A stretch of 64,000 nucleotides of DNA from a virus. Of this stretch, positions 49,751 through 63,441 are shown piece after piece. The translations under genes were made by a program, and so were the position numbers. The notes beneath the pieces were generated by a model that saw only the letters and a program-made list of their open reading frames with translations, was not told where the DNA came from and ran no database searches. Each line of letters opens with the position of its first letter. Position 1 is the stretch's first letter. The stretch lies in IMG/VR virus record IMGVR_UViG_3300033145_001087, positions 47,431-111,430 of that record; one strand, written 5' to 3'.

Positions 49751-49882
49751 ATGAAATGTAAATATTGTAATAGTATTCAATTTAGGATGACTGCTAATGA
49801 GAACGAAGTTGAATGCGTGTATTGTATAAGATGCGGAACTGAATATAAGTTTAAAAAAGGTGAGAAAAATGGTAGAACATAG
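49751..49882 (+). CDS. 43-aa zinc-ribbon microprotein (not in ORF track)
   Basis: MKCKYC...CIRCG. Confidence 0.55.
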   Translation: MKCKYCNSIQFRMTANENEVECVYCIRCGTEYKFKKGEKNGRT

Positions 49883-50126
49883 TGAATTAGGAATAAGAAT
49901 AACCTCTGAAGATATAGAACATTACCTCTCAAATATGGGTATAATGTTAGTAAATAAAACACATTCTTTTATAGAGGCTGGTACAAAAGAAAGTTTAGAC
50001 ATCGTTGTTTATTATAAAGGTAAAAAAGTTACAAATGTAGTAGCCATTGAATTATCTAGTTCAACTATGGAATTTGGAGAAAAAAAGGATGAGGTATTAA
50101 ATTGGAGAAAAGAGATAGAAGGATAG
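49869..50126 (+). CDS. hypothetical protein with NWRKE-like C-terminal tag
   Basis: Ends EVLNWRKEIEG. Confidence 0.55.
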   Translation: MVEHSELGIRITSEDIEHYLSNMGIMLVNKTHSFIEAGTKESLDIVVYYKGKKVTNVVAIELSSSTMEFGEKKDEVLNWRKEIEG

Positions 50127-50458
50127 TAAATTTTTTAGAAGATAATAAAAAATATACCGGTCTAAGTGAATATAAAATACTTTTATCCTTAAAACCATCT
50201 GTTCGAGATGATGCTTATGCCGAATTAGATGTGAATATCTTAGAAAAAACCCTAAAAATTCAATTAAGTAAAGAATTCTACTTAAAAAACCCTATAGACC
50301 AACGTAACATCCTATTTCACGAACTAGTACACGCTAGAGTAGAAGTTATGAAAAAACTTACAGAACAATTTTCAGAACACCTTGAAGAAGACTTTGTGAA
50401 TGATTTAGTTAGAGGATTTGAAAGATTTTACGGTAAAAAAGAATGGAAAATTAAATAG
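50102..50458 (+). CDS. HEXXH zinc metallopeptidase-like protein
   Basis: ILFHELVH followed by EE; TTG start after SD GAGGT. Confidence 0.6.
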   Translation: MEKRDRRIVNFLEDNKKYTGLSEYKILLSLKPSVRDDAYAELDVNILEKTLKIQLSKEFYLKNPIDQRNILFHELVHARVEVMKKLTEQFSEHLEEDFVNDLVRGFERFYGKKEWKIK

Positions 50459-50468
50459 GTGAAACAAA

Positions 50469-50777
50469 ATGGAAGATAAACAAAAGGAATTAATAGGAAA
50501 CTTAGATGCAAAATTTTGGGCAGAAGAGTTTATTAAAAGAGCGAAAGAAGACCCATCGTTTGCGATTGATGAAGGAAATATGATTGGTTGGTTTGCTAAT
50601 GCAATTATGACTGGGTATGATAATATGGGTGGGGTGAAGATTGATTCCCTTAAAAACTATAGATGTATGTTAGACGTGAATGATAGGCCAATTATGGTAG
50701 AAGTAGAACAAGATGATGTATATGATAACTTTGAACCATTTGTATTGTTATCAGAATTAAAGAAACTAATAAAATGA
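50469..50777 (+). CDS. hypothetical protein
   Basis: SD AGGTGA; DAKFWAEEF..MIGWFANAIMTGYD. Confidence 0.6.
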   Translation: MEDKQKELIGNLDAKFWAEEFIKRAKEDPSFAIDEGNMIGWFANAIMTGYDNMGGVKIDSLKNYRCMLDVNDRPIMVEVEQDDVYDNFEPFVLLSELKKLIK

Positions 50778-50879
50778 GAGACGAATGGGATAACCCAGAT
50801 ATAAAACATAGGATTATTTCTATAGAACCTAGTTTAATAAAAAAATGGATAAAAAAGAATATAATGAGGTAAAAACAAA

Positions 50880-51245
50880 ATGGAAAAACAAAAACAAGAA
50901 CAAACAACAGACATAACTCAAGAACAGATAAATAAAGAATGTATTAAAGATTGGGAAAGTAAAAAAAAAGAATTGGATGAAAAAGCTGAACACGCAAAAG
51001 ACTATTGGGGATTTTCATCATTAAGAAACTCTACTAATTTGGCAAATGATATTGGAAAAGAAGTATATTATGCATTAGGAAAAGACGTTTATAAAGGTAA
51101 GATATTATCAGTAAACTGTTATGGAATGTGCTGTATATTACTTGAAGATGGTGGGAGTATATATCGAAGTATGCAAAAAGTATTTGGTAATGTTAATTAT
51201 GCATTACAAAATGCTAAATATAATGAAGAAATGAAAAAACAATAG
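50880..51245 (+). CDS. hypothetical protein with SH3-like C-terminal half
   Basis: SD GAGGT; IGKEVYY..KGKILSV. Confidence 0.5.
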   Translation: MEKQKQEQTTDITQEQINKECIKDWESKKKELDEKAEHAKDYWGFSSLRNSTNLANDIGKEVYYALGKDVYKGKILSVNCYGMCCILLEDGGSIYRSMQKVFGNVNYALQNAKYNEEMKKQ

Positions 51246-51281
51246 AGGTAAAAATATTTAGATTTAGTATTATACCAGTCT

Positions 51282-51391
51282 TAGGATGTAATCCTATGTG
51301 CCATAGGTGCTTCCTAAGCAACTATTTCTCGAAAAGAGTAGTTTACTACTCTTAATAATATGAATGTCTTAAATGGCTTGTATGAGCGTTG
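51282..51391. repeat. degenerate palindromic element, copy 1
   Basis: TAGGAT..ATCCTA, then core AAGAGTAG-TTTA-CTACTCTT; collinear with 59545-59663. Confidence 0.55.
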
Positions 51392-51510
51392 TTATTTATA
51401 ACACAAGTAAATAGTGAAATAATTAGGTAATTCCCGGAGGTGTAGAGGTAACCACTTTACCTATCCTTTTGAAACTATTCCTAGTCATACTAGACCATAC
51501 ACCTCATTCT

Positions 51511-61192: not shown

Positions 61193-61564
61193 ATGTCACT
61201 ACAACAGGAAATAACATTTAATATAGTTAAGTCAATACCAGTAGAACAAAGGACAGACGCTAAAATGAGTGAGGTAAAATATAAAGTATCAGATATACTT
61301 TTAACAAAATTAAAAGGGAGAGTTATCCCTACTTCTAAAATGTTACCAACACCAAGACTAGAAGGATTAAGATTAATGAGGGAAAATACCTTTCATACTT
61401 ATCCTAGAAAATTAAAAACAGATAAACAAAAATTCTTCCACCTTAAAAACTTATTTCAAACCAATAGTATTTCGAAAGAGATATTTATAGACTTACTTTC
61501 CGTTTTAAAGATTAAACAGGGACTGATTGACGCCGCTTTATGCCCTATTGAGGTGGTATTTTAA
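61193..61564 (+). CDS. hypothetical protein
   Basis: SD AGGAGGT; 123 aa; contains a TGACGCCG element. Confidence 0.6.
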   Translation: MSLQQEITFNIVKSIPVEQRTDAKMSEVKYKVSDILLTKLKGRVIPTSKMLPTPRLEGLRLMRENTFHTYPRKLKTDKQKFFHLKNLFQTNSISKEIFIDLLSVLKIKQGLIDAALCPIEVVF

Positions 61565-61845
61565 TGATAGAATTAAGAATAGGAGACCGGTTCATAGATT
61601 TACAAGGTAAATGGTGTGAAGTCCTTTCTACTTATAGTTCTGATAAGTTTTTCCCATATCTTGTTGTTTATGGGATGACAGAACGCCTTTTAAATTTACA
61701 TAAAGCCTGTTTTGAAAAAAATAAAATACCAATTACCAATGTATTTAAATACTCAAGGCAGACTATTGATAAACAATATCGTAGAGGAGTACTTAAACTA
61801 ATACCTAAAAAAGTAAAAAATTGGAGAGAGGAAATAAAATGTTAA
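61564..61845 (+). CDS. TNWRKE-family microprotein
   Basis: LRIGDRF...PKKVKNWREEIKC. Confidence 0.72.
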   Translation: MIELRIGDRFIDLQGKWCEVLSTYSSDKFFPYLVVYGMTERLLNLHKACFEKNKIPITNVFKYSRQTIDKQYRRGVLKLIPKKVKNWREEIKC

Positions 61846-62132
61846 AACTAAAAATAGGAGACCGATTTAAAGATGTGGTCGGGGATTATTGCGAAGTCAT
61901 AAGTATTAAACGTTCTTGGGATGATAATAAAATGTTTCTTTATAGTTTGGCGTTTGCTGATAATGAGACAAAATTAAATGCCCTTATGAAACTATATAAA
62001 GAAGATAAAGGGCTGGTAAGTGGCGAGTTTATAGGACAATATGACCAAGATACTATTGATGCCCAACATGACAAAGGCAACTTAACTTTATTAAATCAAA
62101 AGGTAACTAACTGGAGAAAGGAATTAAAATGA
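61839..62132 (+). CDS. TNWRKE-family microprotein
   Basis: LKIGDRF...QKVTNWRKELK. Confidence 0.72.
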   Translation: MLKLKIGDRFKDVVGDYCEVISIKRSWDDNKMFLYSLAFADNETKLNALMKLYKEDKGLVSGEFIGQYDQDTIDAQHDKGNLTLLNQKVTNWRKELK

Positions 62133-62401
62133 ACATCTTACAAATAGGAGACAAATTTATAAATAATGAGGGAGATTATTGTGAAATTATAAGTATAGAT
62201 AATAGTGGGTCAATTGAAATATATTATAATATAAAATATGCGGATACGGAAGAGGAATTGGCTACAACATTAGATGAAGATGAATATACTCACGACGCCT
62301 TAGAACTATTAGACAAGAAGGGGTCTTTTACACTTATACCTAAAAAAGTTACTAACTGGAGAAAAGAGGTGGAACAAGAAAATGTTAAGACAAGCCCTTA
62401 G
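62129..62401 (+). CDS. TNWRKE-family microprotein
   Basis: LQIGDKF...PKKVTNWRKEVE. Confidence 0.72.
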   Translation: MNILQIGDKFINNEGDYCEIISIDNSGSIEIYYNIKYADTEEELATTLDEDEYTHDALELLDKKGSFTLIPKKVTNWRKEVEQENVKTSP

Positions 62402-62550
62402 TATTTCAATAAACAAATTAAGGAAAATAGCGGATGAATTAGAAAAGGAAAACAATGAAAGTAAATTTCCTGTTGATAACGATAAAAAATGGTCACTACC
62501 TATAATAAACAAACAACCTAAATGCTCAGATACTTGGGAATTTGAATAAA

Positions 62551-62793
62551 ATGGAAAAACCACAAGGATTATTTCATCAAACTAGGGATTTTGCAGTCCT
62601 TAAAATAGAACATTTTATAATACTAGAACATCAAAAAGCATTCCCTGAATTAGCAAAGCAAATGAGAAACAACCCACAAAATGCAACTAATATTTATTCG
62701 GCATTTTTAACAATGACATTACTAAACGCTAAAGGAACATTAACAGATGATATAAAAAGGAAAATCTTAACTACTTATAAGGTGATAAAATGA
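62551..62793 (+). CDS. hypothetical protein
   Basis: 80-aa ORF coupled to neighbours. Confidence 0.5.
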   Translation: MEKPQGLFHQTRDFAVLKIEHFIILEHQKAFPELAKQMRNNPQNATNIYSAFLTMTLLNAKGTLTDDIKRKILTTYKVIK

Positions 62794-63038
62794 CAATTAA
62801 TCCCCCAAACCCATACAATCTTAAAATAGGAGATAAAGTAAAACAAATAAGAAATATAAATTATGACGAAAATCCTATATGTATTATAGATAGTATAACT
62901 CGGTATGGTGATATATCTCCATATTTAAGGGTAGGACATATACATATAGGTAAAAAAACTATTATGTATGATATTATATCTTCTTTTGTTCCTTATAAAA
63001 AAAAGGTTACTAACTGGAGAAAGGAGGTTGAAGAATGA
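62790..63038 (+). CDS. TNWRKE-family microprotein
   Basis: LKIGDKVK...KKKVTNWRKEVEE. Confidence 0.72.
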   Translation: MTINPPNPYNLKIGDKVKQIRNINYDENPICIIDSITRYGDISPYLRVGHIHIGKKTIMYDIISSFVPYKKKVTNWRKEVEE

Positions 63039-63241
63039 AAATAACAATAGAAATGATAGAGGTTGGTGATATACTTTGTTCAGCCGACTCTAAATATCTA
63101 GTATTACAGGTTCAACAATCAAGTACCGTAAATCTTAGACGGCTTGATAATGGTGAAACATTCAATGATGTAGGTATATATCATTTTTCAAATATAATTA
63201 AGGGAAAAATCACTAATTGGAGAAAAGAAATAGAAAAATGA
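63035..63241 (+). CDS. TNWRKE-family microprotein
   Basis: IEVGDIL...GKITNWRKEIEK. Confidence 0.72.
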   Translation: MKITIEMIEVGDILCSADSKYLVLQVQQSSTVNLRRLDNGETFNDVGIYHFSNIIKGKITNWRKEIEK

Positions 63242-63441
63242 TAATAGAACCGCATATGATAGAACTTGGCGATACCCTTCTTTGCGGGGGGAACGAGTAT
63301 ATGATAACACGAATAAACGGTTTATATGTAGATGTAATAAACATATCCAACAGAAATACTTATAACGGCCAATCACTTAAAGTATTTACCGGTATTAAAA
63401 AGATGAGAGTAACGAACTGGAAAAAGGAAATGGGAGGCTAA
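63238..63441 (+). CDS. TNWRKE-family microprotein
   Basis: IELGDTL...MRVTNWKKEMGG. Confidence 0.72.
   Translation: MIIEPHMIELGDTLLCGGNEYMITRINGLYVDVINISNRNTYNGQSLKVFTGIKKMRVTNWKKEMGG

Follow-up and report, generated by a model that had tools for sequence, protein, structure and literature searches.

Small proteins of divergent sequence, encoded in a 64,000-nucleotide stretch of viral DNA (hereafter the window; bases 47431-111430 of the 111,430-bp viral contig IMGVR_UViG_3300033145_001087), share a short C-terminal peptide built around an Asn-Trp pair, the NW tag. Our analysis indicates that this tag is very probably a portable module at the peptide level, and we put the probability that it docks its carriers on one common partner at about one half. 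The reading as a docking helix fits a strict C-terminal position, selection on the peptide, independence from the protein bodies, low structural confidence and a genome-wide flavour. In an uncultured virus clade whose replication genes are of archaeal type, about one sixth of the small genes end in this tag; its sequence shifts in concert throughout each genome, and it adjoins a candidate ubiquitin-like conjugation operon. To our knowledge, the only known cases of a terminal peptide that is shared by many viral accessory proteins and links them to one partner come from a few model phages and from eukaryotic viruses. A literature search that included the literal motifs found no paper that mentions either the motif or a tag of this kind in archaeal viruses.

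A preliminary description of the window had proposed nine open reading frames (ORFs) with such C-termini, and all nine were recovered with identical coordinates. One C-terminus was given too short: VTNWRKEVE, named as the end of the ORF that reaches 62401, is followed by 8 more residues (..EQENVKTSP), which places the tag of this ORF 10 residues from its end. The nine genes are:

49869-50126, + strand: T12, 85 residues; tag ..VLNWRKEIEG with its Asn codon at 50100; alternative GTG start at 49860
54735-54938, + strand: T13, 67 residues; predicted minimal SH3/KOW-like barrel plus tag ..VSNWKKEIGG
57491-57751, + strand: T14, 86 residues; paralogue of T08; tag ..KITNWKKEMEVR
61564-61845, + strand: T15, 93 residues; RIGD start; tag ..KVKNWREEIKC; first of the tandem trio T15-T17
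61839-62132, + strand: T16, 97 residues; KIGD start, overlapping the end of T15; tag ..KVTNWRKELK
62129-62401, + strand: T17, 90 residues; QIGD start; tag ..KVTNWRKEVE followed by the 8 further residues
62790-63038, + strand: T18, 82 residues; KIGD start; tag ..KVTNWRKEVEE; member of the main FKVGD barrel cluster
63035-63241, + strand: T19, 68 residues; EVGD start; tag ..KITNWRKEIEK; ATGA overlap with T18
63238-63441, + strand: T20, 67 residues; ELGD start; tag ..RVTNWKKEMGG; ATGA overlap with T19

An x-[IVL]-G-D start is present in seven of the nine, as described before, the exceptions being T12 and T14. Similarity links T15 to T16 (E=1e-14) and T19 to T20 (E=1e-5), and T14 is 58% identical to T08 (L001:11783-12043; L001, L002 and L003 denote stretches of this virus genome, G000).

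The window contains nine matches to the DNA pattern AAYTGGARRRARGA, every one on the + strand; shuffled versions of the window gave 0.06 +/- 0.24 matches, and none of 100 shuffles reached nine. Each match shares the frame of its ORF and lies 2-10 residues ahead of the stop. In a six-frame translation of the whole genome, the pattern [IV]-x-N-W-[RK]-x-E-[ILVM], 2-13 residues before the stop, defined 20 tagged ORFs of 40-100 residues. All 20 occurrences are in frame, on the + strand and near the stop, and the scan found no tag in other frames, on the other strand or inside long proteins. An equal frequency in other frames or in intergenic DNA, which the preliminary description had named as grounds for abandoning the idea of a tag, is thus not what the genome contains. 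The 11 tagged ORFs outside the window lie at L001:1430-12329 and L002:848-1124. The ends of the contig share a 114-bp terminal repeat, which makes the assembly circular, so T15-T20 at the end of the window are contiguous with T01-T09, and 15 of the 20 tags fall within one 14.8-kb arc spanning the genome junction.

Codon choice separates selection on the peptide from selection on the DNA. Among the 20 tags Thr is encoded by ACT (9), ACC (3), ACG (2) and ACA (2), Asn by AAT (13) and AAC (7), and Arg by AGA, AGG and CGA; the aliphatic residue four positions after Trp (W+4) uses nine different codons. These counts bear out the earlier claim of synonymous variation and selection on the peptide. Pairwise codon identity for Thr and Asn is not above the prediction from genome-wide codon usage, and therefore gives no hint that gene conversion or a DNA seam is at work; the suggestion that the tag DNA might be a recombination seam is not supported by our data, its synonymous sites being as diverse as codon usage predicts, or more so. 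The proposed overlap with the Shine-Dalgarno sequence of the next gene holds for the terminal GG and for part of the Lys-Glu codons, and fails for the rest. Four of the 20 tags end in GG, coded GGAGG(C/G) and placed 5-6 nucleotides (nt) upstream of the next ATG; in T13 these codons (GGAGGC) are the Shine-Dalgarno sequence of the gene starting at 54940, in T20 that of the gene at 63444. AAG at W+2 (44%) and GAG at W+3 (35%) compare with 16% and 14% genome-wide. No Rfam family matched the tag region. Selection on the [IV]-x-N-W core and on the aliphatic residue is at the protein level, whereas the tail end of the tag is doubly used.

Two further small proteins of the window, at 59952-60218 and 50102-50458, end in the look-alikes ..DEEWRKK and ..KKEWKIK, which have neither the Asn nor the aliphatic residue at +4. 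These ends may be decayed tags.

Bodies that carry the tag

T13 was modelled with AlphaFold2 (AF2) from an alignment of 53 sequences, in all of which the Trp is invariant. The mean predicted local distance difference test (pLDDT) score was 80.8, with 84-88 in the barrel and 58 in the tag block, and a helix was modelled at residues 62-65. Foldseek retrieved SH3 and KOW domains at a probability of about 1 but with weak E-values (0.02-0.09), and VIA-align retrieved SH3, KOW, CPH and Mib/HERC2 barrels at Z 6.3-7.9, values below 8 being only moderate. The model superimposes on the RasGAP SH3 domain with Z 7.3 and a root-mean-square deviation (rmsd) of 1.5 Å over 53 residues (model residues 5-58), and on the PARC CPH domain with an rmsd of 1.7 Å. 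The tightest SH3/CPH alignments stop at model residues 57-60, and the ESM Atlas model of T13 matches DUF4926, uL24 KOW and SH3 over residues 1-59 of 67. By these models the T13 body is predicted to be a five-stranded SH3/KOW-like small beta barrel of about 55-60 residues. Matches that end by residue 59 of 67 and the drop of AF2 confidence in the tag support a placement of the tag outside the predicted barrel fold. SH3, KOW, CPH and Mib/HERC2 small barrels are the known structures whose fold is predicted for the T13 body, and such a barrel accounts for no more than a part of the tagged set.

A search of 1.84 billion representatives with the profile returned 1747 proteins at E<=1e-3, most of them long and composed of FKVGD-type repeats. 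In the best matches the tandem repeats pass directly from barrel to barrel, and these relatives have no NW peptide; the barrel is therefore complete without the tag. Searches of the nine window proteins against Pfam gave nothing above the cut-off, and against PHROGs nothing usable, the best match (phrog_13152, of unknown function, to T13 at 1.8e-6) covering the barrel only.

The full tagged set comprises 91 proteins from 10 genomes or contigs, a total that includes twelve protein-database singletons. With the tag removed, the 91 proteins fell into 36 blastp clusters. About two thirds of the tagged proteins open with the x-[IVL]-G-D strand of the barrel, and several tagged clusters reach 65-95% probability in hhalign comparisons with the main barrel family. 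The corresponding values are 28% for the T15-T17 family and 2% for T19/T20, despite their GD starts, and hhalign did not link the barrel family to T08/T14, T09, T10, T11, T12 or a zinc-ribbon family. The T12 body is not SH3-like (probability 0.1% against the FKVGD barrel family), and its one lead from the ESM Atlas, a weak one with a score of 0.88, points to VRR-NUC / PD-(D/E)XK-like proteins. For T14, AF2 with a two-sequence alignment (T14 and T08) gave a poor, mostly beta model (pLDDT 57.9, tag below 50), too low in confidence for a fold assignment. The preliminary description had credited the nine proteins with SH3-like bodies; this stands for T13, by model, and T18 falls with T13 in the main barrel cluster, but T12 and T14 have no detectable link to the barrel.

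In relatives the tag is also found on an acidic zinc-ribbon family with four Cys and orthologues in five genomes, on proteins with a transmembrane (TM) helix, on Ser/Thr-rich proteins and on low-complexity proteins of 40-50 residues that have no barrel. The tag is not confined to one paralogue family, which speaks against a core element of one ordinary family of this kind, the other outcome that the preliminary description had held against its proposal.

Tag flavour in relatives and the neighbouring operon

Searches with the terminase and with the ThiF-type E1 of this virus yielded one IMG/VR contig (G002, 47 kb) and about ten metagenome contigs (labelled within L038-L046), with E1 proteins 42-65% identical. 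G002 has 30 tagged small ORFs; L038, L039, L040/41, L043, L044, L045 and L046 have 1-7 each, directly beside the E1 operon described below. Constant throughout the clade are [IV] at -3 or -2, N or D at -1, the Trp and an aliphatic residue at +4. The remaining positions differ by genome:

G000: NW[RK]KE[ILVM]
G002: NW[KR]ERI[KR]-stop, in 29 of 30
L038: NW[EQ]KE
L040/41: INWR..L-stop
L044: NW[RK].[RK]L

Identity over W+1 to W+4 is 0.56 within and 0.26 between genomes, a gap reached by none of 2000 label permutations; taken alone this test is weak, as paralogues have common ancestry. In the T06 and zinc-ribbon families, each orthologue shows the flavour of its own genome. From Trp to stop there are 5 residues in 29 of 30 tags of G002 and 4 in five of six of L040/41, against ranges of 5-13 in G000 and 6-14 in L044. 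A scan of IMG/VR with the DNA patterns found the G000-type tag nowhere else and the G002-type tag only in G002, apart from one internal match shared by two contigs. This match, KITNWKERIK near the start of a long protein of the unrelated viral contigs L033 and L034 (IMGVR_UViG_3300029369_000254 and _3300029405_000104), is probably due to chance.

Within the tag array, an apparently helical protein of 80 residues is encoded at 62542-62793. It is 54% identical between G000 and G002, whereas the tagged bodies around it are barely alignable, and it is a candidate for a conserved partner or regulator.

The genes of G000 include a large terminase, a portal and a capsid-like protein, a RadA-type recombinase (Rad51 family match at 7e-75, with HHH_5 at the N-terminus) and a replication set of family-B DNA polymerase (PolB), PCNA (L002:11180-11899), RFC-like ATPase (L002:12032-12949) and archaeo-eukaryotic primase (AEP); an anaerobic ribonucleotide reductase and the E1 are also encoded. 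From this gene content we take G000 to be a tailed virus whose replication genes are of archaeal type. Compared with phage records by megablast, the region gave zero matches, and scans of genome contigs for a host, using P0021 and the viral RadA, gave no useful match.

A block of four genes (L001:5694-9725), outside the window, adjoins the tags and is conserved in all relatives. It encodes a protein of about 120 residues (122 in G000) that ends in ..EIKSA and not in GG, a protein of about 516 residues with an invariant HPH..PC.G, a protein of about 370-450 residues (447 in G000) in which the JAMM signature E..HxH..S..D is invariant in alignment A6, and the E1, whose ThiF match (6e-19) makes it the sole member of the block supported by a hidden Markov model (HMM). 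The candidate E2-like proteins are the one of 516 residues and another of 201. PADLOC and PDB sequence searches with the E2-like, JAMM and ubiquitin-like (Ubl-like) proteins gave no support beyond the E1. The 14.8-kb arc of G000 holds a stand-alone candidate E2-like gene in addition to this candidate Ubl/E2-like/JAMM/E1 operon. In G000 and in 10 of 10 E1 relatives with enough flank (42-65% identity), the operon has tagged genes on one side or on both.

Possible functions of the tag

The reading that we favour takes [IV]-x-[ND]-W-x-x-x-[aliphatic] as a portable short linear motif that lies 4-8 residues, and in rare cases up to 14, from the C-terminus. The motif would fold into one to two turns of an N-capped amphipathic helix, with the invariant Trp, the Ile/Val at -3 (or -2) and the aliphatic residue at +4 on its hydrophobic face. 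The tag would hang off small accessory proteins and plug all of them into one common partner, acting in trans by docking; since this partner would co-evolve with the tag, it is probably encoded by the virus. By gene neighbourhood only, the leading candidate would be the ubiquitin-like conjugation module (ThiF-type E1, JAMM peptidase, E2-like proteins), with the tagged mini-proteins as interchangeable substrate receptors or substrates. We name this partner tentatively and with low confidence. Less probable again is the full scenario in which the tag is the recruitment code of viral ubiquitin-like conjugation, and dozens of mini-proteins, docked through it on the E2-like, E1 or JAMM components, are either a receptor library, an E3-less counterpart of F-box adaptors, or dedicated substrates.

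Several points weigh against docking on a common partner and against the conjugation module in particular. The analysis yielded no docking partner for the NW tag, for which the preliminary description had suggested a host protease/AAA ATPase or a viral scaffold, with the variable bodies binding different targets; and the low AF2 confidence in the tag fits a floppy docking peptide but is no proof of one. The labels E2-like and Ubl-like are unsupported in HMM and PDB sequence searches. The association of tags with the operon is biased, the relatives having been fetched via E1. In E1, some columns (e.g. G000 positions 99, 103, 143 and 145) divide according to the charge at W+3 of the tag, but these are confounded by phylogeny and were not used as evidence. 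Uniformity within a genome may in part reflect recent tandem duplication, and only two orthologue families counter this.

Could the NW helix instead be the last element of one diverged SH3-like paralogue family, its Trp packed on the barrel and nothing acting in trans? The C-terminal helix of Sso7d, which packs on its barrel, is the model for such a structural cap. The strand start in about two thirds of the tagged proteins, the hhalign ties of several clusters (65-95%) to the main barrel family and the fact that the tag always follows the last beta strand all agree with it. We nevertheless consider it unlikely: the zinc-ribbon family (five genomes), the TM proteins and the 40-50-residue low-complexity proteins have no barrel to cap, barrel-family members without a tag are complete, and AF2 gives no confident docking of the tag although its Trp is invariant in 53 sequences. 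The same logic as in our favoured reading, a portable element that is uniform per genome and sits on hypervariable small proteins, would hold if the partner of the tag were a scaffold, a portal or a protein of the capsid interior, with a variable set of effectors being packaged and ejected into the host. The arrays do begin right after the terminase gene, but the neighbours of the tagged genes are replication and accessory genes, and the head and tail genes are on the other strand. A protease site is not evident, and the comparable signal of phage T4 is N-terminal and cleaved whereas the NW tag is C-terminal; virion loading is quite unlikely on this evidence. We also give little credit to a clamp-binding peptide, that is, a non-canonical PCNA-interacting protein (PIP) box recruiting the mini-proteins to viral or host PCNA. 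Archaeal PIP boxes resemble the [IV]-x-x-W spacing near the C-terminus with basic residues after it, and are likewise short helical C-terminal peptides with a hydrophobic and an aromatic residue three apart; moreover, the virus encodes PCNA and an RFC-like protein. The PIP-box consensus Q-x-x-[LIM]-x-x-[FYW]-[FYW] is, however, not matched. Gln is absent four positions before Ile/Val, and K, R, E or Q stands where the second aromatic should be (K/R after the Trp in general, E/Q in L038). The viral PolB carries a canonical ..LDKFFG end, and the acidic ..[LV][DN]F[ST]F tails of other proteins fit clamp binding far better. This is one of the two least probable readings.

Two further alternatives place the function in gene expression. 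In one, the stretch works as DNA or RNA (ribosome-binding site of the next gene, translational coupling, recombination seam) and the peptide is a by-product. The genes are packed with ATGA overlaps, TGG-AGR includes GGAG, GGAGG(C/G) encodes the four GG endings just ahead of the next ATG, and AAG and GAG are enriched at W+2 and W+3. Against this reading, the Trp is kept before AAA, GAA and CAA, which form no Shine-Dalgarno sequence, the Arg via AGA and CGA, and the aliphatic W+4 via nine codons. Variation at synonymous sites equals or exceeds the prediction from codon usage, TGG is not at a constant distance from the next start, some tags have no close downstream gene, and the Rfam search was negative; we regard a nucleic-acid signal as very unlikely. 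The other is a nascent peptide acting in cis, whose last ~10 residues would act in the exit tunnel, slow release and favour re-initiation on the overlapping start. It would suit the frequent ATGA overlaps and the near-fixed Trp-to-stop distance in G002 and L040/41, but not the wide ranges in G000 and L044 or the several tagged genes that have no overlapping downstream gene, and a tunnel-directed peptide should keep its flavour between closely related viruses. Like clamp binding, it is highly improbable.

Known systems offer partial parallels. T4 has an N-terminal, cleaved capsid-targeting sequence on internal proteins and C-terminal clamp-binding tails on gp43, gp33 and gp55. Like these, the NW tag is a short terminal peptide common to unrelated or fast-evolving proteins of one virus, and those of T4 are read by one partner; unlike them it has a different sequence, and G000 already possesses a separate, more canonical clamp-type tail (PolB ..LDKFFG). 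In poxviruses the PRANC element, which docks on host Skp1, is a folded F-box-like domain some tens of residues long. Poxvirus ankyrin/PRANC proteins also combine a variable body with a constant C-terminal element, expanded in one genome and with a suspected ubiquitin-type link, but the NW tag has about 10 residues and is no F-box domain, the nearby conjugation genes are viral, and the analogy is conceptual only.

Several candidate identities were tried and rejected. Against a ubiquitin-like modifier stand the T13 body, modelled as SH3-like and not as beta-grasp, and the GG endings, which occur in 4 of 20 tags and are coded by the GGAGG Shine-Dalgarno sequence of the next gene. A SUMO-type psi-K-x-E acceptor site is contradicted by Arg in place of Lys in half of the tags, a MinD-like membrane-targeting helix by the acidic tags of L038, and an LC3-interacting region/Atg8-interacting motif (LIR/AIM) by a spacing of W+4, not W+3. 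The T4-type capsid-targeting sequence needs an N-terminal leader cut by the prohead protease, and the NW tag is C-terminal in 20 of 20. A PRANC/F-box-like domain does not agree with a conserved element of about 10 residues that has no Pfam match at E<=1.

The tag is short and its Trp invariant, and the docking reading can thus be tested directly with peptides. Finding the reader would give a function to dozens of orphan genes at once and may show how a viral ubiquitin-like system picks its targets. If the recruitment code proved true, an archaeal-type virus would own a programmable protein-tagging apparatus.

Further features of the window

A second type of shared C-terminal tail consists of an acidic run ending in ..PVDFSF, ..PLDFTF, ..DLNFEIM or ..EELNFNI. 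It is found at the ends of four proteins:

51872-52447: acidic-tail protein
56826-57464: acidic-tail protein
58031-58300: acidic-tail protein
56268-56498: acidic-tail protein

The viral PolB (genome 38263-41484, L002/L003) ends in ..KELDKFFG. Judged by their residues, these acidic tails and the PolB end look like clamp-binding tails of the PIP/T4 type.

Three stretches of the window (approximately 51250-51870, 52830-53180 and 53660-54280) are free of ORFs, richer in GC and dense in repeats, and had no match in Rfam. Among their repeats are a 37-nt tandem pair at 51534-51607 and a TGTCACGG-like motif that recurs. The stretches could be iterons or an origin, or RNAs of unknown type.

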